IMG/VR virus record: IMGVR_UViG_3300030433_000076
Span: 1-31,525 of that record
Source: a virus
Lineage: Duplodnaviria > Caudoviricetes
DNA length: 31,525 bases
Strand: one strand, 5' to 3'
Part shown: one piece after another, positions 3,052 through 27,680 of the stretch
Layout of the letters: each line of letters starts with the position of its first letter
How positions within the stretch are numbered: position 1 is the first letter of the stretch
Made by a program: the position numbers and the translations under genes
The notes under the pieces: generated by a model
Told to the model about the DNA's origin: nothing
Databases searched by the model: none
What the model saw: only the letters and a program-made list of their open reading frames with translations

Positions 3052-4635
3052 ATGGGCTTAAGAAACGCTTGGAAGGGCTTATTTACATCTAATAATGACT
3101 TAAATAGCCGTAGAAATAGGTTAAAAAGAATGTATGCAGGTGCAAAAGTAGATAGAACTAACCTTAGTTGGATTACACCACTATCATCACCAGATCAAAG
3201 TTATAAAAATTCTATAGAAACTCTAAGAAAACGTGTACATGATTTAGTACGTAATAATAATTATGCAGCACAGGCAGTTAGATATGCAACTAATCAAGTA
3301 GTTGGACAGGGTGTAACTTTACAGGCACAGATTAAAAGTCAAAGAGGCGGTACACCTAATACTAGATTAAATGAGTCTATAGAGAGTGAATGGAGTAAAT
3401 GGGGTAGAAAAGATAGCTGTGATATACGTGGCGTTTTATGTTTTTCTGAACTTGAAAGACTTGCAGTAAGATCAATGATAGAAAGCGGTGAATGTTTTAT
3501 TATCATACATAGAAAAGCATATGGTAGAAGTAAAATCCCTTTTTCATTAGAAATATTAGAGGCAGAACAATTAGATGCTGATTATAAAGGTGTTAAAAAA
3601 AATAATAAAAATGTATGGAGGTTAGGTATAGAGATAAGTCCAGAAGGTAGGGCTGTAAGTTATGCGTTTTTAAAGAAACATCCTGGTGATACTACATTTG
3701 AAACACCTGTTAGAGATAGAAGGCATATTATTGTACCTGCAAAAGATGTAATACATTTATTTATGCCACTAAGACCAGGACAACATAGAGGCGTACCTTT
3801 TTTAGCAAGTGCAATAAACCATTTACATCAGTTAGATGGATATATAGAAGCAACTGTTGTAGGTCAACGTGCAAGTTCTGCACTAATGGGATTTATTACA
3901 AGTCCAGAAGGTGAATTAGATGCTGGTGGTGAGGTATTTGATTATGAACGTGTAAGTGGATTTGAACCTGGTACTTTTAAATATTTAGCACCTGGTGAAT
4001 CAATATCTGTACCTGATTTAGATAAAGCTAATGGTGAATTTGAACCTTTTGTTAGGGCAATGCTTAGAAGTATGGCTAGTGGTCTTGGATGTAGTTTTGA
4101 GGCTATAAGTTCTGACTATTCACAATCTAATTACAGTAGTAGCAGATTAGCAATGATGCAAGACAGAGATCATTGGAGAACAATACAAAAAATGTTGAAG
4201 GAAACTTTTTACCAGCCTATATATGAATACTGGTTAGAAATGGCTGTATTAAGTAATACATTAACATTGCCTACATATTCAACAACACCAGAAGTATATG
4301 AAAAAGTTAGATGGGTATGTAGAGGATATAGCTATGTAGATCCACAAAAAGAAGTAGCAGCTATGAAAGATGCGGTAAGGTGTGGATTTAAAACATTAAC
4401 AGATGTTGTTAGTGAAAATGGTGGAGATATAGAAGAACTGCTGATTGCTAGACAGACAGAACTAGCAAAACTAGATGAAATGAATATCATTACTGATAGT
4501 GACCCATCAGCTACAAATAAATCTGGTGGTAGTCAATACAAACCTATAAATACTGTAGATCCATTTGGTGATACAGATGCACCTACAGGTGAGGATGCGG
4601 AAAACGTAGCGGATGGTTCAGATGGCAGTTATTAA
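3052..4635 (+). CDS. Portal protein, lambda family
   Basis: 527 aa; RVHDLVRNNNYA, RPGQHRGVP, ISSDYSQSNYSSSR, YVDPQKE motifs. Confidence 0.96.
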   Translation: MGLRNAWKGLFTSNNDLNSRRNRLKRMYAGAKVDRTNLSWITPLSSPDQSYKNSIETLRKRVHDLVRNNNYAAQAVRYATNQVVGQGVTLQAQIKSQRGGTPNTRLNESIESEWSKWGRKDSCDIRGVLCFSELERLAVRSMIESGECFIIIHRKAYGRSKIPFSLEILEAEQLDADYKGVKKNNKNVWRLGIEISPEGRAVSYAFLKKHPGDTTFETPVRDRRHIIVPAKDVIHLFMPLRPGQHRGVPFLASAINHLHQLDGYIEATVVGQRASSALMGFITSPEGELDAGGEVFDYERVSGFEPGTFKYLAPGESISVPDLDKANGEFEPFVRAMLRSMASGLGCSFEAISSDYSQSNYSSSRLAMMQDRDHWRTIQKMLKETFYQPIYEYWLEMAVLSNTLTLPTYSTTPEVYEKVRWVCRGYSYVDPQKEVAAMKDAVRCGFKTLTDVVSENGGDIEELLIARQTELAKLDEMNIITDSDPSATNKSGGSQYKPINTVDPFGDTDAPTGEDAENVADGSDGSY

Positions 4636-7198
4636 TGGCACAGAAATAGACCTTATGCCTACAGCAGGTATGAGGGAAGAAGCACAAAGGTATAGAGATT
4701 GGAAATCAGAGGGTGAAGGTGGTGGTACAGAAGTAGCACGTAGAAGGGCAACACAAATATTAAGTGGGAATGAATTAAGTCCAGATGTTGTAATACAAAT
4801 GTCAGCATGGTTTGCAAGACATTCTGTAGACAAAGAAGCAGAAGGATTTAGACCTGGTGAAGATGGATACCCTAGTAATGGCAGAGTGGCGTGGGCTGCT
4901 TGGGGTGGTGATGCAGGTAAAAGTTTTTCTGATGCAAAATCAGCTAGAATAAAAGAATTAAGAAACAATGACGCTATGCCTAAAACAAAACGTACAGCAA
5001 AACGTGCAGAACCAGATGAACTATCTGTAGGTGATTCAGTTAGATGGAACGCAAGTGGCGGTACTGCAAGAGGTGTTATAGATTCTATTGAACGTGATGG
5101 AACTATAAATGTACCTGATTCTAGTTTTGAAATTACGGGTACAGAAGATGACCCTGCTGCATTAATTACTGTCTATAGAGAAAATGATGGTGAATATGAA
5201 GCAACAGATGTAAAGGTAGGTCATAAGTTCAGTACATTAACTAAGATAAATTCATTAAGAAGTGTTACAAAAGTTTTAAAACGTAGTGGAGAAACATCTT
5301 TTTCTGAAAAAGAAGAAAACACATATGAATTTAGTTTTTCTAGTACATACCCTGTAGAAAGATCATTTGGTACTGAAATACTAAGCCATGACGAGGGTGC
5401 TATAGATTTTGGAAGGCTAAATGGTGGGGTAGCACCAGTATTATGGAATCATAATATGGATTCTGTTATAGGAATTGTTCGTAACGCATATCTTGATAAG
5501 GAAAAGAAAAAAGGGAGGGCAGTTGTTGAATTAAGCAGAAATGCAAAGGCACAGGAAGTAAAAAGAGATATAGATGACGGCATTTTAAGTGCAATTAGCG
5601 TAGGATACCGCATTTTAGAAATGGAAGAACGTGAAATAGATGGAAGTAACGCATTTTTAGCTACAAGATGGGAGCCACATGAAGTATCTGTAGTTGCATC
5701 ACCTGCCGCACCAGATGTAGGCATATCTAGAGGATTAATTGATGAAAACACTATGCCTAGTGTTGAAAAACAAGATATGATAGACAGTAAGCGTGTATAC
5801 GCAGCGTCTACTGACGCACAACAGCCCAATTCTAAAAAACAATCAACTATGGAAAAAGAGCAACTTGATCTAGAAGTTGTGCGTAGTGAAGCTACTAAAA
5901 AAGCTGCTTCCGCAGAACGCACAAGAATTAGAGAAATCAACACAATGTGTTCTAAGCGTGGTTTTGATGACCTAGCAGAACAGTTAATTAACAATGGTTC
6001 TTCTGTAGATTCATGCAGAGCAGCTATCTTAGAAAGATTAGATGCAAAGCCTGTAGAAACAGCAAAGCCTATTGAAGAGCAGCTTTCACCAAAAGAAAGA
6101 GAGCAGTATGCAAGAGACTACAAAATTACATCTGGTATCAGAGGTCTTTTAACAAATGATTGGTCAGATAAAGCATCTGGTTTTGCTAGAGAAATTTCAC
6201 AGCAGATAGCAAAAGATTCACAAAGATCTAATAGCTCATCTTCTTTGTTTATTCCTTATAGCTCATTAGCAAAAAGAGCTACATATGTAACTACTGGTGC
6301 AACAACTGGTGGAAATATCGTAGCAACAGATTTACTTGCTGATGACTTTATTGAGGCACTAAGAAACAGCACAGTAATGGTTGGTTTAGGTGTACAAACA
6401 TTATCAGGTTTAGTTGGTGATGTTGCTATTCCTAGAAGATCAGGTGTTGCATCTACTGGCTATCTTGCTAATGAAACTACTGCACTATCACAGGCAGAAA
6501 GTACATTTGATCAAATTTCAATGACACCTAAGACTTTAGGCACATTATCTAAGTTTTCTAGAAATATGCTTATTCAGTCAACACCAGGTATTGAGGATCT
6601 AGTAAGAACTGATATTCTTGATGGTATCAATGTTGGTCTTGATCTAGGTATCTTAAATGGTTCTGGTTCATCTGGTCAGCCTACAGGTATCATGCAAACA
6701 TCTGGTATTGGTTCTGTTGCAATCGGTACTAATGGTGGTGCTATCACAGTTGATAAGCTGATTGATCTAGAAACTGCAATCATGGAAGATAATGCAGGTG
6801 TTAACGCTGATTCTATTTCTTATGTAACCAACGCTAAGGTGATGGGTGCAATTAAGAAACTTAAAACATCTGGCGGTGAGTATCTAGTTAACAACAACTT
6901 ACAGGCATTAGGTAGAGGTGCTACACCTGTTGCTGTTAATGGTTATCCTTTAGCAATGACAAACCAAGTACCAAGCAACCTAACTAAAGGTTCAACATCT
7001 GGTACTTGTTCTGCTGTTGTTATGGGTGACTTTAGCCAAGCAATTTTAGGTCTATATGGATCTGGTATTGAAATTACAGCAGGTGAAGATTCTGATGATT
7101 TCGCTAAGAATCTTGTAAGTATCAAGGGTGTAGTTGCATTTGATGTTGCTGTTAGACACGCACAATCATTTGCTGCAATCTTAGACGTAACCACATAA
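4622..7198 (+). CDS. Fusion of two accessory domains, HK97-type prohead protease and HK97-fold major capsid protein
   Basis: Protease motifs PVLWNHN, ISVGYRI, WEPHEVSVVASPA; capsid motifs FIEALRN, MTPKTLG, LNGSGSSGQPTGI, MGDFSQ, FDVAVRHAQSF; start is 4613 or 4622. Confidence 0.93.
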   Translation: MAVINGTEIDLMPTAGMREEAQRYRDWKSEGEGGGTEVARRRATQILSGNELSPDVVIQMSAWFARHSVDKEAEGFRPGEDGYPSNGRVAWAAWGGDAGKSFSDAKSARIKELRNNDAMPKTKRTAKRAEPDELSVGDSVRWNASGGTARGVIDSIERDGTINVPDSSFEITGTEDDPAALITVYRENDGEYEATDVKVGHKFSTLTKINSLRSVTKVLKRSGETSFSEKEENTYEFSFSSTYPVERSFGTEILSHDEGAIDFGRLNGGVAPVLWNHNMDSVIGIVRNAYLDKEKKKGRAVVELSRNAKAQEVKRDIDDGILSAISVGYRILEMEEREIDGSNAFLATRWEPHEVSVVASPAAPDVGISRGLIDENTMPSVEKQDMIDSKRVYAASTDAQQPNSKKQSTMEKEQLDLEVVRSEATKKAASAERTRIREINTMCSKRGFDDLAEQLINNGSSVDSCRAAILERLDAKPVETAKPIEEQLSPKEREQYARDYKITSGIRGLLTNDWSDKASGFAREISQQIAKDSQRSNSSSSLFIPYSSLAKRATYVTTGATTGGNIVATDLLADDFIEALRNSTVMVGLGVQTLSGLVGDVAIPRRSGVASTGYLANETTALSQAESTFDQISMTPKTLGTLSKFSRNMLIQSTPGIEDLVRTDILDGINVGLDLGILNGSGSSGQPTGIMQTSGIGSVAIGTNGGAITVDKLIDLETAIMEDNAGVNADSISYVTNAKVMGAIKKLKTSGGEYLVNNNLQALGRGATPVAVNGYPLAMTNQVPSNLTKGSTSGTCSAVVMGDFSQAILGLYGSGIEITAGEDSDDFAKNLVSIKGVVAFDVAVRHAQSFAAILDVTT

Positions 7199-21184: not shown

Positions 21185-21316
21185 TTAATTAATCTTTTCA
21201 TGCATTTGCCTTGTCATTATCCCCATAGTGACGTAGAGAGGGGATAGGGCTACAATAAGCAGTAATACGACTACAGACATTAATGCTGTAGCTCTTGCTA
21301 TCTGTTCTTTAATCAT
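21185..21316 (-). CDS. Small single-TM protein (43 aa)
   Basis: MIKEQIARATALMSVVVLLLIVALSPLYVTMGIMTRQMHEKIN exactly fills the gap between flanking + genes. Confidence 0.55.
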   Translation of the reverse strand: MIKEQIARATALMSVVVLLLIVALSPLYVTMGIMTRQMHEKIN

Positions 21317-21548
21317 GCAAAAAATAATTAATGGAATTGCCTGTTTAACTTTCTTGTTAACATTAGGCTTTATAGGCACAGCATACTTTGGTTATAAATA
21401 CATTACAAGTCCGAAAGGACAGGAAAAAATAAAAAAACAAATATTAGATGAACTAAAAGGCGGTATGCCTAAACTAATCAATAAAGAACTTCCTAAATTT
21501 ACACAACCTGCATTACCTACAAAACCACAAAAAAAAATTAGTTTTTAA
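21315..21548 (+). CDS. Membrane-anchored protein with Pro-rich tail
   Basis: N-terminal TM IINGIACLTFLLTLGFIGTAYFGY; TAATG coupling to the next gene. Confidence 0.75.
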   Translation: MQKIINGIACLTFLLTLGFIGTAYFGYKYITSPKGQEKIKKQILDELKGGMPKLINKELPKFTQPALPTKPQKKISF

Positions 21549-22246
21549 TGCCAGAAATTAATTTAATACCTAGTTCAGCAATACCACGTATACCGATAAT
21601 AAAAATACCTGTAGAGCAATCTTTACCTAATACACAACATATAACAAGAACATTACCACCAACGCTTACAATGCCTTGTGTAACGCTTAGAAATGATGGT
21701 ACTAAGAATAATAAATTATTTATAGATGATCCTTCTGGTAACAAAACAATATGCCCTTTACCTTATTATGTACCTATTCAATATGACAAAAAGAAAATAC
21801 AACTTGTAGAAGAAGCTAAACCACCTACAAATGTTGAACCACCAGAACCAGAAGTAGAGGAACCAGAAGTACCAGAAATACCAGAAGATGAAAAGGTTGA
21901 ATGTCCTGATCCAAAAAAAAATAATCCTAGAATTGGTGATTTAAATGCAAAAGGTACTGAGAAAGTAACAGGATATAAATATATAGAAGAAACTAAAGAA
22001 TGTGTGATCCAGTGGGCTAATACATCAGCAGTAGAAAAATACCTACCTAGCTTAAATACAGTATCTACAACTTTCGCAATAACAGTAGTAGCTACAACAG
22101 CTGCAACATTAACCCCTTTATTAAATAGAGTGTTAAAGCCTTTATTTAAACAAATTATTGGTAGAGTCAAAAAATTAATAGGTAAAAAAGGTACAAAGTT
22201 TGAAGGTAAAAAGCCAATAAAGAGTAAATTAAATAAAAGTAGCTAA
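21548..22246 (+). CDS. Pro-rich, Cys-containing protein with C-terminal TM and basic tail
   Basis: PEPEVEEPEVPEIP linker, 4 Cys, TM TTFAITVVATTAATLTPLL, then Lys-rich end. Confidence 0.8.
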   Translation: MPEINLIPSSAIPRIPIIKIPVEQSLPNTQHITRTLPPTLTMPCVTLRNDGTKNNKLFIDDPSGNKTICPLPYYVPIQYDKKKIQLVEEAKPPTNVEPPEPEVEEPEVPEIPEDEKVECPDPKKNNPRIGDLNAKGTEKVTGYKYIEETKECVIQWANTSAVEKYLPSLNTVSTTFAITVVATTAATLTPLLNRVLKPLFKQIIGRVKKLIGKKGTKFEGKKPIKSKLNKSS

Positions 22247-22260
22247 TATTAAAATAAGTA

Positions 22261-22289
22261 TTGCATAATTTAGGGGTATACCCCATACT
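22261..22289 (+). promoter_or_regulatory. Sigma70-type promoter containing palindrome GGGGTATACCCC
   Basis: TTGCAT-17-CATACT; 12-bp perfect palindrome at 22273-22284. Confidence 0.7.
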
Positions 22290-22323
22290 GAATGTAATTA
22301 TTGTTCTACATTTATTATTTGCC

Positions 22324-22482
22324 ATGTCATTTGAAGAAGAACTAGAGCAAATAGAAAGAGAAGAATGGTTATCTAAGTTTGATGATCGTCAAGTTATGAT
22401 GGCTGCAAGAATGTTTTTAGAATGGCTATATCATTTGCCAGATGATTGGCAGCCAAAACAATATACAGAATTTACTTTATAA
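22324..22482 (+). CDS. Hypothetical acidic protein (52 aa)
   Basis: ATG at 22324, downstream of the promoter, preferred over TTG at 22261. Confidence 0.65.
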   Translation: MSFEEELEQIEREEWLSKFDDRQVMMAARMFLEWLYHLPDDWQPKQYTEFTL

Positions 22483-22484
22483 TT

Positions 22485-22799
22485 ATGAACACGCAACCAG
22501 AACAATTATTACGCCAACTTAAGGTATTGCAATTACAAAAAAAAGAAATTGATATGCAAATAACAGAGAAGAAAATGGTATTAGAAAAGTATTATTTAGA
22601 AGGTATCATTATGAGTACTTTTAGTATTGATGGTGTAAAAGTAACAAGAAAACGTAAACCAGAAAAATGGCAATATAGTAATACTACAGATCAATTTAGA
22701 AAAGATATGTTAAATGCTATAGAAGATAAAGAACAACAGGAAAGAGAAGAAGGAATAGCAATTAAATTAGAAACTGGTTATACATGGGCAATGAAATGA
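22485..22799 (+). CDS. Hypothetical coiled-coil protein
   Basis: ATG 2 nt after the previous stop; ATGA overlap with the next gene. Confidence 0.7.
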   Translation: MNTQPEQLLRQLKVLQLQKKEIDMQITEKKMVLEKYYLEGIIMSTFSIDGVKVTRKRKPEKWQYSNTTDQFRKDMLNAIEDKEQQEREEGIAIKLETGYTWAMK

Positions 22800-23065
22800 A
22801 AACAACAGAAAGAGTAGAAAACGCATTTAGGCGTATAAAAGAGTTACTTACGTTAGTAGCAGATTGGACAAAAAAACAAAAAGAACCAGATGCACTAAGT
22901 TTAGAATTTAATAAAAAAAAGCAACAAATGATAGATGATTTATATGTACAGTTAGGTGCATTAAGTGACAGGTATCATTTTAGTAATAAAAAAGAATTTA
23001 GTACAAAAGAATATATAGTGCAGTATGACCAGTTAAAGAAAAAAATAACAGATTTAGAAAAATGA
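22796..23065 (+). CDS. Hypothetical protein
   Basis: MKTTERVENAFRRIKELL; ATGA overlaps at both ends. Confidence 0.7.
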   Translation: MKTTERVENAFRRIKELLTLVADWTKKQKEPDALSLEFNKKKQQMIDDLYVQLGALSDRYHFSNKKEFSTKEYIVQYDQLKKKITDLEK

Positions 23066-23403
23066 ACGCACAAAAAAATAAAGGCGATAGGGCAGAAAGA
23101 GAAGCGTGTATTTATTTAACAGCAGCTACAGGACATATAGTAGAAAGACGTTTTGGTGCTGGTCAGGATAAAGATAAAGGTGATTTACTTGGCATACCTA
23201 ATACTGTTGTACAGGTATGTGATATGAAAGATAAGAGTGAAGCTGTATTAAGAAAGCCTAGAGAAGCAGAACAACAGCGACTAAATGCAAATGTAGACCA
23301 TGCTATTACAATGGTCAGGTTTAATAAAAGACCAGGCTGTGCAGAAGGTGATAACTGGCGTGTTGTAATGACTATTGAACAGTACGCAAGATTAATAAAA
23401 TGA
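23062..23403 (+). CDS. Holliday junction resolvase-like PD-(D/E)XK nuclease
   Basis: KNKGDRAERE, DKGDL, VVQVC (in place of the usual ExK), WRVVM. Confidence 0.65.
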   Translation: MNAQKNKGDRAEREACIYLTAATGHIVERRFGAGQDKDKGDLLGIPNTVVQVCDMKDKSEAVLRKPREAEQQRLNANVDHAITMVRFNKRPGCAEGDNWRVVMTIEQYARLIK

Positions 23404-23537
23404 ATTGTCTGTACTGTAAAAAAGAATTAATTATAAGTGATACGCAAGAATATGAATTAGATGATACTTATGATTTTATAACGTATCTACATTGTGCAGA
23501 ATGTAAAACAGATGTAGAGGTATATAAAAAAAAATAA
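23400..23537 (+). CDS. Small zinc-ribbon protein (45 aa, absent from ORF track)
   Basis: MNCLYCKKELII...YLHCAECKTDVEVY, two CxxC pairs; ATGA overlap. Confidence 0.7.
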   Translation: MNCLYCKKELIISDTQEYELDDTYDFITYLHCAECKTDVEVYKKK

Positions 23538-23545
23538 TTAATATG

Positions 23546-23574
23546 TTGACAGGGGTATACCCCTTGTATATACT
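23546..23574 (+). promoter_or_regulatory. Near-consensus sigma70 promoter containing palindrome AGGGGTATACCCCT
   Basis: TTGACA-17-TATACT; 14-bp perfect palindrome at 23551-23564. Confidence 0.85.
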
Positions 23575-23607
23575 AAGAATGTACTAAACAACCGAGAGGT
23601 TTTCCAA

Positions 23608-24132
23608 ATGACTAAAACAACTACAGACAAAAAAGAGTTTTTCAAAAAGCAAATAGCCTGTATTACTGAATATGTTAAGCAAGATCCAGAAGTAAGTTCT
23701 GAATTTTATTATGAATTTATTAAAGGCTGTAACCCTACACCTGCTGATTATGAAGCTGTATCTGAACCACTATATAGAACACTAAATGTAAGTCAGGGTT
23801 TTAATGATTGGCAAAATGATTTCAAAGTAAGAGTAGGTTCACCTAAATTACGCAAAGGTGTATATGCACCAACAGGTGAGAATCGTGTATACGATATGAA
23901 CTGCATCTGGAATGTAAGTTTACATTTATGTGATGGCAAGTATGTAGGAATTAATGCAGGTGCTTGTATATCAAGTAGCTACAGCAAAGAACAATTAATG
24001 GCAAATCGCAGAATGTACAACTTAAGACCTGTTGCAAATGGTGAGAAAGTAATTATTAATGGTGAGTTTTACATTGCTAAAGTTAATGGTCATTACTCAA
24101 ACTGCATTGAATTTACAAAGGAGGTAGCATAA
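23608..24132 (+). CDS. Hypothetical early protein (174 aa)
   Basis: First ORF after the strong promoter; GAGG SD upstream. Confidence 0.75.
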   Translation: MTKTTTDKKEFFKKQIACITEYVKQDPEVSSEFYYEFIKGCNPTPADYEAVSEPLYRTLNVSQGFNDWQNDFKVRVGSPKLRKGVYAPTGENRVYDMNCIWNVSLHLCDGKYVGINAGACISSSYSKEQLMANRRMYNLRPVANGEKVIINGEFYIAKVNGHYSNCIEFTKEVA

Positions 24133-24263
24133 TGCAAAACTTTCTAATGATGTTAGCAGCGTCAGGGTTGTTTTATACAGCCCTTTCATCAACTTTATAT
24201 GACATGACAGTAACAGATTGCAATGCAGGTATAGAACTAGCTTGTAAGGAGGTAAACAAGTAA
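24132..24263 (+). CDS. Small hydrophobic two-Cys peptide (43 aa, absent from ORF track)
   Basis: MQNFLMMLAASGLFYTALSSTLYDMTVTDCNAGIELACKEVNK; AAGGAGGT SD; TAATG coupling. Confidence 0.7.
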   Translation: MQNFLMMLAASGLFYTALSSTLYDMTVTDCNAGIELACKEVNK

Positions 24264-24436
24264 TGGGTACTTTATTAAACTTGACTCATGCAGAATTAAA
24301 AGAGGTTTATTTATCTCTTACTAAGGGTCAATGGAAAGATTTAGAAGCTAATAAGTCAGCAACAGAAAAAGTACAAAAGTATTTAGTAGATGTTGCTATG
24401 ACCTGTGAATTTGAAACTAAGGAGGTAAACAAATGA
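24263..24436 (+). CDS. Hypothetical protein (57 aa, absent from ORF track)
   Basis: MGTLLNLTHAELKEVY...; TAAGGAGGT SD; coupled at both ends. Confidence 0.7.
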   Translation: MGTLLNLTHAELKEVYLSLTKGQWKDLEANKSATEKVQKYLVDVAMTCEFETKEVNK

Positions 24437-24762
24437 AACTAAAATTAGATTTACCAAGAGAAAGATGGGATTTTATTAAAAGCAAATTAGAACCACATAA
24501 AAGAGATTCTGAAACTGTTACTTTGTTTTGTCATGCAATAGACTCTTTTGATCTTGAAGAATCACTACCACAAAAAATATTTCAAGTTTTATCGGCTAGT
24601 GGTAAAAATCCTTTTCAGTTTCCTAAAGCAAGAATGTTGCAAGATTGTAATGGAGGTGCAGGTATTCTAAAAGAAATTGCTATGCAAGATATATCATTAC
24701 CTACTTTAGCTGATTCTTATTATCAGTTTCTTTTAGACAATTTTAAAATGGAGAAGAAATAA
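24433..24762 (+). CDS. Hypothetical protein (109 aa)
   Basis: TAAGGAGGT SD, ATGA overlap. Confidence 0.75.
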   Translation: MKLKLDLPRERWDFIKSKLEPHKRDSETVTLFCHAIDSFDLEESLPQKIFQVLSASGKNPFQFPKARMLQDCNGGAGILKEIAMQDISLPTLADSYYQFLLDNFKMEKK

Positions 24763-25064
24763 TGACTACACAAAATTGGATTAAATCAAAAGATGGTAGC
24801 TTTGCAATTAGCTTAGAAGAAATAACATTCTCATTAGTAAAAAATAGTGATGTACCTAGATTTTCTATTATGTGGTGGGATAAAGGTGCTACTAATCCTA
24901 ATGCTACTCTCATGGATCTACTTAATATAGTTGCGCCTGATCCAGAAATACCTATGCCAATATCACAAAAAGTATATGACTTAGTTATGGAAAATTATGG
25001 TGAATATCTAAAAGTTAGATTTAATAATTATTGTGAGAATAAAGGTTGGAATAAAATAGAATAA
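24762..25064 (+). CDS. Hypothetical protein (100 aa)
   Basis: GGAG SD, TAATG coupling. Confidence 0.7.
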   Translation: MTTQNWIKSKDGSFAISLEEITFSLVKNSDVPRFSIMWWDKGATNPNATLMDLLNIVAPDPEIPMPISQKVYDLVMENYGEYLKVRFNNYCENKGWNKIE

Positions 25065-25068
25065 TGAT

Positions 25069-25186
25069 TTAGTCGGGAAGCCTGATAGTTAGTTTAGTAG
25101 TGTTTGCTAACTTGAAAGTTATACAAAACCTATTGCATGGTAGGAAAGACAGGGCAAGTGTTGGACTTGATCTATATCCTGACTAA
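25069..25186 (+). ncRNA. Putative multi-stem structured RNA
   Basis: 10-bp closing stem 25069-78/25177-86 enclosing four further helices; G-U pairs favour the + strand; fills the whole intergenic gap. Confidence 0.55.
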
Positions 25187-25351
25187 TTAATTTAATTTAG
25201 GGAACAATTGCTGTTCAAGCAGGTCTACTGCACGGTCATCCAATGTATTTGAGGTCTGCTTACAAATTGACCGTAGTAAATCTACAATTAACCTCTTGCA
25301 TCCTGTTGTAGAAAGAAAGCGTAGCAGTATAGGTTTTAAAATTTTGTACAT
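25187..25351 (-). CDS. Small amphipathic protein (54 aa), possible lysis accessory
   Basis: MYKILKPILLRFLS...LIVDLL...TSNTLDDRAVD; resembles a small family I recall from cyanophages. Confidence 0.7.
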   Translation of the reverse strand: MYKILKPILLRFLSTTGCKRLIVDLLRSICKQTSNTLDDRAVDLLEQQLFPKLN

Positions 25352-25408
25352 GACTTTGTTTAGGTTTACAAACATACTATAGACGTTATTGTAAAAATGG
25401 TCATCTAG

Positions 25409-25450
25409 GGCTGTTTAATCCCCATCGCAAAGCTAGACAGCCTTTTTTTT
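25409..25450 (+). terminator. Terminator-like hairpin with large loop, antisense to flanking genes
   Basis: GGCTGTTTA/TAGACAGCC stem, 16-nt loop, T8. Confidence 0.55.
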
Positions 25451-25679
25451 ACCTTCTAGGCTTAATTTCTGCAACGGCAAGTTCTACTTCTTTTAATCTG
25501 TGAAATACCTCTTTCATATCGTCATGCATATCATCTATTTTTGTTGTTAATAATTCTATTGCTGTTGTATTTCTTACTAAGTCATCCCTCGATTGTCTAC
25601 CTCTATATGATACAGAACCTACAGATACAAAACAGGCTGTTAACATTGCCCCACCTACTGCTGCTACTACTTCTATCAC
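25449..25679 (-). CDS. N-terminal TM plus coiled-coil protein (holin-like architecture)
   Basis: IEVVAAVGGAMLTACFVSVGSV followed by heptads LTTKIDDMHDDMKEVFHRLKEVE. Confidence 0.7.
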   Translation of the reverse strand: MIEVVAAVGGAMLTACFVSVGSVSYRGRQSRDDLVRNTTAIELLTTKIDDMHDDMKEVFHRLKEVELAVAEIKPRR

Positions 25680-25691
25680 TTTTCTTAACCC

Positions 25692-25714
25692 TAATCTATA
25701 GCTATTATAGATTA
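25692..25714. promoter_or_regulatory. Inverted repeat between divergent genes
   Basis: TAATCTATA-gctat-TATAGATTA in the 42-bp divergent gap. Confidence 0.5.
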
Positions 25715-25721
25715 AAAACCT

Positions 25722-26096
25722 ATGTCAGAGCAAAAATCTAAAAATCCTCTACAAAAGCTTAAAGAAAAATTTGATGATAAAGAAGAACAATTTGAATATA
25801 TATCAGTAGCAGTTAGACTTCTGGTAGTTTTTTGGAGTGGCCTTCTAGTTACAAGTAATTACTTGCCTAAGATACCTGGTCTAACTACAGGAGAAAAACA
25901 GGATATTACATTTCCGGCCAGTTTGTTAGCATCAAGTCTTTCTAGTTTTGGTTTAGAAGGTGCTAAAAAACGTAAGGAAAACCAAGAGAAACCTAAAGAA
26001 GTTGCACAAAGTGACAATTCATACCAAACTATAAGGGTAGAAACACCTATAAAAATAATTGGTGCTACTGTGGTTGACCCCAATACAAAAAAATGA
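25722..26096 (+). CDS. Inner-membrane protein (1-2 TM)
   Basis: YISVAVRLLVVFWSGLLVT and ITFPASLLASSLSSFGL segments with charged termini. Confidence 0.8.
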   Translation: MSEQKSKNPLQKLKEKFDDKEEQFEYISVAVRLLVVFWSGLLVTSNYLPKIPGLTTGEKQDITFPASLLASSLSSFGLEGAKKRKENQEKPKEVAQSDNSYQTIRVETPIKIIGATVVDPNTKK

Positions 26097-26596
26097 AACG
26101 ATTTCTACCTTTACTGCTGTTAGCAGTTACACCTGCTTGTTATGCAGATTTATCACACAGTATAACTAGCTCAACAAAACTTACAGTAGGAGGAGCTAGT
26201 ACAACTTCTTCAAGGCTTGGAAACAGCTATAGCATTAGCGGTTCTGGGGTAGATACAAGTTACACTACCGCAGCAGGGCAATCAGTTAGTGATGGGTTAG
26301 GATCTTTAAATGTCTCAAGTGGTGTAGCTACTGCTCCATCTATTACAGTTACACAAAAAACAGCTGGGAACAGTTTTACATTTAGTCAGTCATACAATCA
26401 AGCTGACGCAATACCAACATCAGCAGTTACAGTTGGAGCTAATCCTAATTTTTCTGATAATGTTACAAGTATTGCAGGTGGTACAGCAGGTGATTTAGCA
26501 GGTACGATTACTTCAGCAGGAGCAATAACACTAACAGCAGGTGGTCATAATACTGAGGCACTAGGGCAAGTAACATCTACATTAATAGTTGACTAG
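26093..26596 (+). CDS. Secreted Ser/Thr/Gly-rich beta protein
   Basis: Signal peptide MKRFLPLLLLAVTPACYA; ATGA overlap. Confidence 0.8.
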   Translation: MKRFLPLLLLAVTPACYADLSHSITSSTKLTVGGASTTSSRLGNSYSISGSGVDTSYTTAAGQSVSDGLGSLNVSSGVATAPSITVTQKTAGNSFTFSQSYNQADAIPTSAVTVGANPNFSDNVTSIAGGTAGDLAGTITSAGAITLTAGGHNTEALGQVTSTLIVD

Positions 26597-26604
26597 CTAT
26601 AGCT

Positions 26605-27033
26605 ATGTATAGGTTTATATTTCTGCTAAGTTTTTTTAGCTTACCTGTATATGCTCAAAGTGTAATTCCTAATTTCCAACAGGGAGTACTAAACCAAAGA
26701 TCAGAAACAAAATCTACAACAGTTGAGGACATAAAAAGTTTTGATATACGTAATGGTTACCAACTAACAATAGGAGGCGTAAATGTAAAAAGTTCTACAG
26801 GCAATGTAGCCCCTAATGGGTGGACAAAAGTAGATACAACAGTACAAGGTGTAGGAACTACATATGTATCACCAAACTTAGATAATAAACCTACTTTTAG
26901 TATTGTAAATCAAGGTGAGAGTTTCCAATATTATGAAACTTTAGAAACACCTGGTATTACTAATTACACGCATATAATTAGGACTACTCAGATACAAAAT
27001 ATAACTGATACAACATCTACCTTTAGTCAATGA
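26605..27033 (+). CDS. Secreted Thr-rich beta protein
   Basis: Signal peptide MYRFIFLLSFFSLPVYA; VIPNFQQG N-terminus, TDTTSTFSQ C-terminus. Confidence 0.8.
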   Translation: MYRFIFLLSFFSLPVYAQSVIPNFQQGVLNQRSETKSTTVEDIKSFDIRNGYQLTIGGVNVKSSTGNVAPNGWTKVDTTVQGVGTTYVSPNLDNKPTFSIVNQGESFQYYETLETPGITNYTHIIRTTQIQNITDTTSTFSQ

Positions 27034-27680
27034 AAAGATATTTATTATTACTGCTGTTGTTTAATAATCCTGTTTTAGCTAATTCTGTTAATACTACTAG
27101 TAATTCCAGTGGTTCAGTAGTGAACCAGGCAGTGCAGGTTGTACCATCAAGGCAGTTTCAGTATCAGATGAATACTATTACGTGTCAGGGTGCTACTTTA
27201 AATATTTCTCCATTTGTCTCTACAACTTATGGATTTGCCACCCCATATGAGTCGCATTACAATAGACCAATATACTCAAGGCGTGATATTGAAGGTGATT
27301 TTGATGATGATAATAATGCAATAGGTGATGGTGATGTAGATGTTGGTTATAGAGGTGAAATATTGTACTTTGAAAAAGTTAGAACTGGACAAAAACAATC
27401 TAATGTTTCTGTTAATGGTGGTATTACTGCTACTTTTTCAATACCACTAGATAGAACAGCTATAAAAGAATGTAGAAAGGCTATGAAAAAACAAAATGAA
27501 TTATATGAAGCATCATTAGCTGCAAAACGTCTGAATTTTGAAATGAGTAGAGCAAAGACTTGTATAGACAATCTAAAACAAGGTATAAGATTTAAAGAAG
27601 GTACTGAAATGGCAAGAATATGTGCTGATGTAGAACTTATAACACCGCCTAATGTAGAACATACACATAAAATTAAGTAG
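27030..27680 (+). CDS. Secreted protein with beta-hairpin and helical coiled coil, 4 Cys
   Basis: Signal peptide MKRYLLLLLLFNNPVLA; TLNISPFV and NGGITATFSIPLD strands; acidic loop; long C-terminal helix. Confidence 0.8.
   Translation: MKRYLLLLLLFNNPVLANSVNTTSNSSGSVVNQAVQVVPSRQFQYQMNTITCQGATLNISPFVSTTYGFATPYESHYNRPIYSRRDIEGDFDDDNNAIGDGDVDVGYRGEILYFEKVRTGQKQSNVSVNGGITATFSIPLDRTAIKECRKAMKKQNELYEASLAAKRLNFEMSRAKTCIDNLKQGIRFKEGTEMARICADVELITPPNVEHTHKIK

Follow-up and report, generated by a model that had tools for sequence, protein, structure and literature searches.

Gene organization of the operon

Four genes occupy positions 25722–27680 on the plus strand of the window, the whole stretch of DNA analyzed here, a linear virus record of 31,525 bases that is 96% complete by estimate. 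Lambda-like head and tail genes are followed in it by tail fibres, and the low G+C content and the relatives of the genes suggest a marine picocyanobacterium as the host. Gene A (25722–26096, 124 aa) encodes a Syn9 gp161-like inner-membrane protein (DUF6450, phrog_2714/721, T4-GC218) with one or two transmembrane (TM) segments; the segment at 27–45 is clear and the second lies below the hydropathy threshold used. Genes B (26093–26596, 167 aa; gp167, 'OMP1') and C (26605–27033, 142 aa; gp166) encode exported beta proteins. Gene D (27030–27680, 216 aa; gp165) encodes an exported protein with an Asn/Gln/Ser-rich N-terminal strand, an uncharged amphipathic beta-hairpin, a heptad-length helix, and four invariant cysteines. 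In PHROGs and Pfam, A and C match DUF6450 and DUF6322, and all four proteins fall into PHROG families with no assigned function.

The original prediction of a coupled operon, with one membrane protein and three proteins carrying signal peptides, is borne out by ATGA overlaps at A/B and C/D, a gap of 8 nt between B and C, and hydropathy. The N-termini of B, C, and D, called as signal peptides by eye and hydropathy, each open with a basic residue and a hydrophobic segment (best 8-residue Kyte-Doolittle mean 2.8–3.0) and have a cleavage-like site ending in Ala. The mature ends, placed by eye, are Asp in B, Gln in C, and Asn in D, and the sole Cys of B is inside its signal peptide. In the P-SSP7 record, the C homologue carries a possible-SignalP annotation and the A homologue one of 2 TM regions.

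On their sequences, B and C are paralogues (cross-matches; HHalign profile probability 90%, E = 1.5e-6). Both are rich in Ser and Thr (31% in B, 24% in C), as had been predicted, and the AlphaFold2 monomer of B is all beta, with the expected long N- and C-terminal strands around a small central sandwich (pLDDT 66.7, pTM 0.38). B is likely a polymer subunit, and C is likely a core subunit or adaptor. The strands, helix, and four cysteines foreseen for the third protein recur in D, whose AlphaFold2 monomer has a long hairpin and, after it, a helix of 42 residues (pLDDT 73.7, pTM 0.44). Across 107 sequences, the hairpin strands of D are uncharged and alternate between hydrophobic and polar residues, an alternation that is characteristic of outer-membrane barrel strands. 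Since a single hairpin cannot cross the membrane alone, D would have to oligomerize into a ring, and we predict from the model that it is an outer-membrane ring subunit. The Cys-Cys span of the helix is 23 in 81 and 30 in 272 of the 353 measurable viral D ORFs (from about 390, the remainder being cut or off-pattern). A span that changes in exact steps of seven points to a coiled coil.

Neighbouring genes in the window

Two plus-strand genes upstream belong to the same system. Gene E (21548–22246; gp164) encodes a Pro-rich protein with 4 Cys, a C-terminal TM segment (174–192), and a basic tail, without a coiled coil; it is likely a periplasm-spanning tether. Gene F (21315–21548; gp162) encodes a protein with one N-terminal TM segment; its 'plasmid stability' name was treated as a transferred label and rejected, the product being a 77-aa membrane peptide. 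A small TM ORF on the minus strand (21185–21379), divergent from F and overlapping it, is conserved beside F in relatives; its translation probably begins at an internal Met, for a product of ~43 aa.

E is convergent with D in most relatives, while in the window E and F are separated from D by 5.4 kb, after an inversion. The inverted segment spans about 5.4 kb (22247–27680, approximate breakpoints) relative to the common convergent order. Among 47 close relatives with room for both, 20 have the split order of the window and 27 the convergent one; the inversion is a polymorphism among close relatives, not an assembly artefact. No recombination repeat is evident at its ends.

Two minus-strand genes lie immediately before A. 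Gene G (25449–25679) encodes a protein with a TM segment and a coiled coil, homologous to S-CBS1 gp21 (E = 1.8e-20), which sits in a cluster of small genes ending in the S-CBS1 lysozyme. Gene H (25187–25375) encodes a small amphipathic protein homologous to Syn5 gp48 (E = 2.1e-13). Since S-CBS1 and Syn5 both have such homologues without A–F, G and H would mark the lysis slot, with A–F as a separable addition; judged by homology, each is likely a lysis-cassette gene. The earlier grouping of all these neighbours into one system therefore stands for E and F but not for G and H. Likewise, the estimate of about nine envelope genes filling over 10% of the genome was right in extent, but eight such genes were counted (F, E, H, G, and A–D), with 3,311 bp or 10.5% of the window.

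Between G and H, a G+C-rich inverted repeat of 6 bp with a 22-nt loop is followed by a T run on the plus strand (25405–25448). This loop exceeds the limit of the terminator scan used; the promoter/terminator scan of the window was at chance (12 vs 11.3 expected; 2 vs 1.2). Elsewhere, a prohead protease is fused to the major capsid protein (4613–7198), with an Hva1-type Tudor domain at residues 140–186. Among the 50 ORFs of the window, PHROGs and Pfam gave no endolysin, holin, or spanin family, as the prediction had held for endolysin and spanin; an NlpC/P60 domain match lies within the lambda-type tail protein.

Distribution and synteny among cyanophages

In tblastn searches of 50,697 phage records, B was found in 411, C in 412, and D in 438, and the matching records are named cyanophages, marine phages, or uncultured phages only. 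The relatives of D form 562 clusters at 50% identity. Annotated records with the same block comprise T4-like myoviruses, MED4-184, uvMED S37-C6, and the T7-like P-SSP10 and P-SSP7. By tblastn to P-SSM2 and S-CAM22 genes and by synteny, the window carries the Syn9 gp161–167 cassette, here in a lambda-like siphovirus; gp163 was not found in the window.

Co-occurrence was assessed in 400 viral loci, the best 80 for each of five queries, which are related and non-independent. In this sample, all 262 B loci with room downstream also have C and D, all 337 D loci have C, and 213 of 221 B loci have E, consistent with the predicted conserved multi-protein envelope system. A–D travel together with E and F in myoviruses, podoviruses, and siphoviruses. 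The T7-like phages have a reduced set (E, A, C, D, and H; B is missing), located between the tail fibre and small terminase genes in P-SSP10 and P-SSP7, which we take to be the slot of the T7 holin. In siphoviruses the cassette adjoins lysis-type small membrane genes. Syn5 and S-CBS1 lack A–F, and S-PM2 lacks all cassette clusters.

The genes had been expected to be conserved in cyanophages without annotation, and this agrees with the record counts and with Sullivan et al. 2010 (PMC3037559). In the sections of that paper covered here, T4-GC 218, 219, 234, 235, and 237 (with 236 and 414) correspond to Syn9 gp161–167 and form a 'mobile hypothetical genes cluster', present in 15 of 16 cyanomyoviruses and missing from S-PM2 and ten non-cyano T4-like phages. 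The same sections concern T4-like phages only, give no function, localization, or cellular homologues, and offer a single proposal, that the genes cluster for functional reasons. The predicted non-virion nature of the proteins is supported by blank proteomics entries for T4-GC 218, 219, and 234–237 in the supplement sections covered, where structural genes (gp15, gp18; tail sheath) are marked YES; these data concern homologues in other phages, not the window phage. The part of PMC7885011 covered, citing Lindell 2007, places P-SSP7 genes 29–51 in the late class, and the cassette copies are genes 42–46. We found no function for the cassette in the literature searched (subscription journals being outside its scope) and nothing on it in the sections of PMC12801897 covered; no report of fibres on infected picocyanobacteria was among the matches listed.

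Other features recur at these loci. The 3' ends of D and E overlap in antisense by >200 nt in myoviruses (L001:7839–8053, L002:7599–7828), and 29 loci have a gene for a separate small outer-membrane beta-barrel (PF24653) close to the cassette (e.g., L329:2058–2420, minus strand). Upstream of B, TATAAATA is found in 13 of 130 myovirus-type loci and TAAATA alone in 77 of 130; these are raw counts and were set aside as evidence.

Probable start of D within C in relatives

The window D has an ordinary start. Among 199 distinct C–D pairs, 158 have no ATG near the signal peptide of D (e.g., L001:6665–8050, L004:3671–4663, L344:3827–4723). In those 158 pairs the D frame, −1 relative to C, is open for at least 45 codons within C (median 104), compared to an average of 13.4 codons in recoded controls, with a chance of ~7% per locus of reaching 40. 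The median open stretch is 1 in pairs where D has its own ATG, which include the window. In the former pairs, the D product probably begins within the C gene and carries a long basic leader, or it arises through an unusual start or a frameshift.

Homologues in cyanobacterial chromosomes

The D profile matched 10 of 301 genomes of the host order, and a broader profile 8 of 401 genomes of the phylum. G001, G002, and G179 were set aside as phage DNA, and most of 24 genome-contig matches are MAG/SAG contigs that were read as phage DNA. Twelve cellular D loci were inspected in context, four of them on contigs of 2.7–6.5 Mb among host genes. The cellular D proteins retain all four Cys and the Gly, Asn, and Pro anchors, with a Cys-Cys span of 23, 30, or 37 in 10 of the 12. 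One to five exported Ser/Thr-rich neighbours lie beside D in eight loci, some resembling by eye one very long polar hairpin; of the other four loci, two lie where the contig ends, a transposase interrupts the third, and the fourth has a secreted neighbour of another kind. No A, F, G, or H gene was found beside D in any of the 12 loci (E<0.01). D accompanied by several hairpin partners, without the membrane genes, would be easier to reconcile with an appendage made of major and minor subunits than with a lysis device.

The relationship of these neighbours to B and C is suggestive only at the sequence level: at E<0.01 the C profile matches 3 of 17 exported neighbours from distant operons (4 of 340 shuffles), and the B profile matches 1 of 17 (2 of 340 shuffles). 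Two loci, L445 and L446, contain clear B, C, and D among host genes; both sit where their contigs begin, and a prophage may lie past that edge. L445 also has an E-like gene in the convergent order of the phages. In a tree of 43 D proteins, ten cellular rows fall on one side of a branch (98/97), with L445 and L446 nearest the phages; the tree is unrooted with long branches and gives no direction of transfer.

At L441 (6967–8956), a transposase gene interrupts the chromosomal D homologue. Beside it are ndk and two FecR plus CHASE2-cyclase pairs (Pfam), partner types reported for pelagiphage curli clusters. An exported Cys-rich family of ~150–170 aa follows several cellular D genes (L441:8959–9453, L442:10732–11184, L444:8804–9250, L478:749–1267, L479:8541–9041); it has no Pfam match and was not seen in the phage cassette.

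Fold searches and comparison with known systems

Foldseek searches against the PDB gave no clear match for B (best E = 0.42) or D (best E = 0.31), and VIA fold searches reached at best Z = 4.1 for B (wide search) and Z = 5.3 for D, the latter with generic helices only; the models are low-pTM monomers of B and D, and the absence of fold matches leaves family membership possible. In a viral structure library, gp165 homologues are among the named top rows for D. Profile searches against solved chains gave nothing below E = 0.04, the ESM Atlas returned nothing but DUF6322/OMP1 clusters for B and no usable named match for D, and NCBIfam had no match for A–H. The expectation that no characterized family would be matched held in the Foldseek, profile, Pfam, and NCBIfam searches.

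The cassette shares features with several systems. Curli (type VIII secretion; CsgA, B, F, G) is also phage-borne, its pelagiphage version occurring in myo- and podoviruses like the cassette, according to the sections of PMC9599517 covered. An outer-membrane pore with paralogous exported beta subunits is likewise the plan predicted here, but the cassette has inner-membrane partners A, E, and F. Curlin repeats are not matched in Pfam or NCBIfam by B, C, or the cellular neighbours, whose sequences contain no repeats; no CsgG/CsgF family match was obtained, and D has no N-terminal Cys. CsgG was not among the matches of the low-pTM D monomer, and its fold is unlike the one hairpin and long helix of D.

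In the cyanobacterial tubular (CT) pilus of Microcystis, exported long-beta-hairpin subunits polymerize into a tube; the subunits are cyanobacteria-specific, and their AlphaFold monomers are also poor (PMC12397347, sections covered). The cluster described there includes a glycosyltransferase and a methyltransferase, and those sections name no four-Cys partner. An MrpC-like pilin was not among the profile or fold matches (low-pTM B and D monomers), and neither O-GlcNAc transferase nor FkbM genes were found among the window ORFs or the scanned cellular neighbours. The cassette appears to belong to neither the curli nor the CT pilus family.

A strand-Pro-helix junction of TolC/OEP proteins (PF02321) aligns in register with D. 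HHalign against 19 OEP repeats gave probabilities of 2.6% and 11%, and homology is not supported. Window D has no Pfam match to OEP repeats, and one cellular D scores 14.1 bits against a cut-off of 22 (E = 0.042). Compared with TolC/OEP, D has a single hairpin, no N-terminal helices, four Cys, and 200 aa.

Like the lambda Rz/Rz1 spanins and the T7 gp17.5 slot, the cassette may provide a late envelope-spanning pair with a coiled coil in a lysis-cassette position, and the C and D reading frames overlap in most relatives, a spanin-like trait. It differs from spanins in the location of the coiled coil, predicted to be on the outer-membrane side, in the C-terminal anchor of E, and in having extra beta subunits and chromosomal homologues. 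The candidates for a type II inner-membrane protein with a periplasmic coiled coil are E, with its C-terminal anchor, and the short F, with its N-terminal one. By eye, no lipobox-type outer-membrane lipoprotein was seen among B, C, and D.

The gene cluster is already in print as hypothetical, and its parts match no named family or fold; the mechanism of the system is a prediction.

Possible functions

We favour, tentatively and with somewhat less than even confidence, the view that the operon is the core of a cassette building a cell-derived outer-membrane ring, which assembles a surface tube or fibre. An oligomeric barrel would be built from the transmembrane hairpins of D, one per subunit, and the helices, again one per subunit, would form a coiled-coil collar in the periplasm that two disulfides close. 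Pairing between subunits may involve the long strands at both termini of B and C, with the polar N-terminal strand of D as the seed, and C and B would be assembled on the D ring late in infection. E, with A and F, may tie the ring to the inner membrane. The putative role of the structure would be to protect or position the infected cell until lysis, with regard to grazing, sinking, aggregation, or superinfection.

The chromosomal homologues favour a surface structure over a lysis device, and the variable number of paralogous neighbours would fit major and minor subunits. Several observations count against a fibre. Both monomer models have low pTM and match no fibre, pilus, or channel of solved structure; T7-like phages are without B, which would be the major subunit; and 14 of the 17 cellular neighbours are not significant against the C profile. 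The cassette also lies beside lysis-type genes in siphoviruses and between the tail fibre and small terminase genes in T7-like phages. Its occurrence in nearly all of these lytic phages is easier to explain by an essential step of lysis than by an accessory fibre.

It is possible, though on balance doubtful, that the cassette instead aids lysis in the manner of a non-canonical spanin. The periplasm would be bridged by D, with its coiled coil, from the outer membrane and by the Pro-rich E, anchored in the inner membrane; together with C, B, and small membrane proteins, the pair would rupture or fuse the outer membrane after wall weakening. The slot in P-SSP10 and P-SSP7, the siphovirus arrangement in which G, H, and a candidate endolysin adjoin the block, and the quantized coiled-coil length of D agree with this role, as do late expression in P-SSP7 (PMC7885011, part covered) and, in the covered part of PMC3037559, presence in 15 of 16 myoviruses, for which the same table lists neither a T4 holin nor a soluble lysozyme. 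However, all that Syn5 has in this slot is an H homologue plus one small TM/coiled-coil gene, and S-CBS1 and S-PM2 have no block. All three phages lyse Synechococcus. In cells, moreover, D and as many as five hairpin neighbours lie among housekeeping genes while A, F, G, and H are missing, and the lack of a visible lipobox also speaks against a spanin. A co-opted version of the assembly system could serve lysis.

Two more specific roles are not supported. At 20 loci the block adjoins a C39-like peptidase related to the second domain of the S-CBS1 lysozyme. Neither this peptidase nor an S-CBS1-type lysin was found in four close relatives, of which two are 100% complete, and this counts against the fibre reading. 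Given the candidate endolysin domain and the three cyanophages without the block, the block does not seem to be an endolysin stand-in. The egress channel of the original prediction is disfavoured, as a barrel made of single hairpins would be far too narrow for a phage head.

A static trans-envelope pore, in which B and C lengthen D as a long beta-barrel for solute uptake or leakage during infection with no external fibre, is unlikely. The hairpin-plus-helix of D recalls half a TolC repeat, with the sub-threshold OEP match of one cellular D, and a single very long polar hairpin, as in some cellular neighbours, would suit such a barrel. Against it are the low OEP profile probabilities, the lack of any transporter or ATPase found in the cassette, and the varying count of paralogous neighbours, which would be more in keeping with major and minor subunits. 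Receptor masking or superinfection exclusion by proteins that bind or occlude host surface receptors is very improbable: the envelope location and conservation across phages with common hosts agree with it, but the chromosomal versions are multi-subunit operons, and late expression and a six- to seven-gene assembly are, to our knowledge, unusual for exclusion systems.

The cassette is among the most widespread uncharacterized genes of phages infecting the most abundant phototrophs. The natural negatives (Syn5, S-CBS1, and S-PM2) and the cellular copies make the choice between a fibre and lysis directly testable. If a lysis aid, the cassette would explain how phages without recognized spanins open the outer membrane. 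If a fibre machine, it would represent a new bacterial export pathway and would alter the grazing, sinking, and aggregation of infected cells. More tentatively than the surface structure itself, we suggest that a secretion-assembly pathway was taken once from picocyanobacteria and spread via myo-, podo-, and siphoviruses, and that most infected Prochlorococcus and Synechococcus cells may grow phage-encoded surface tubes before lysis.
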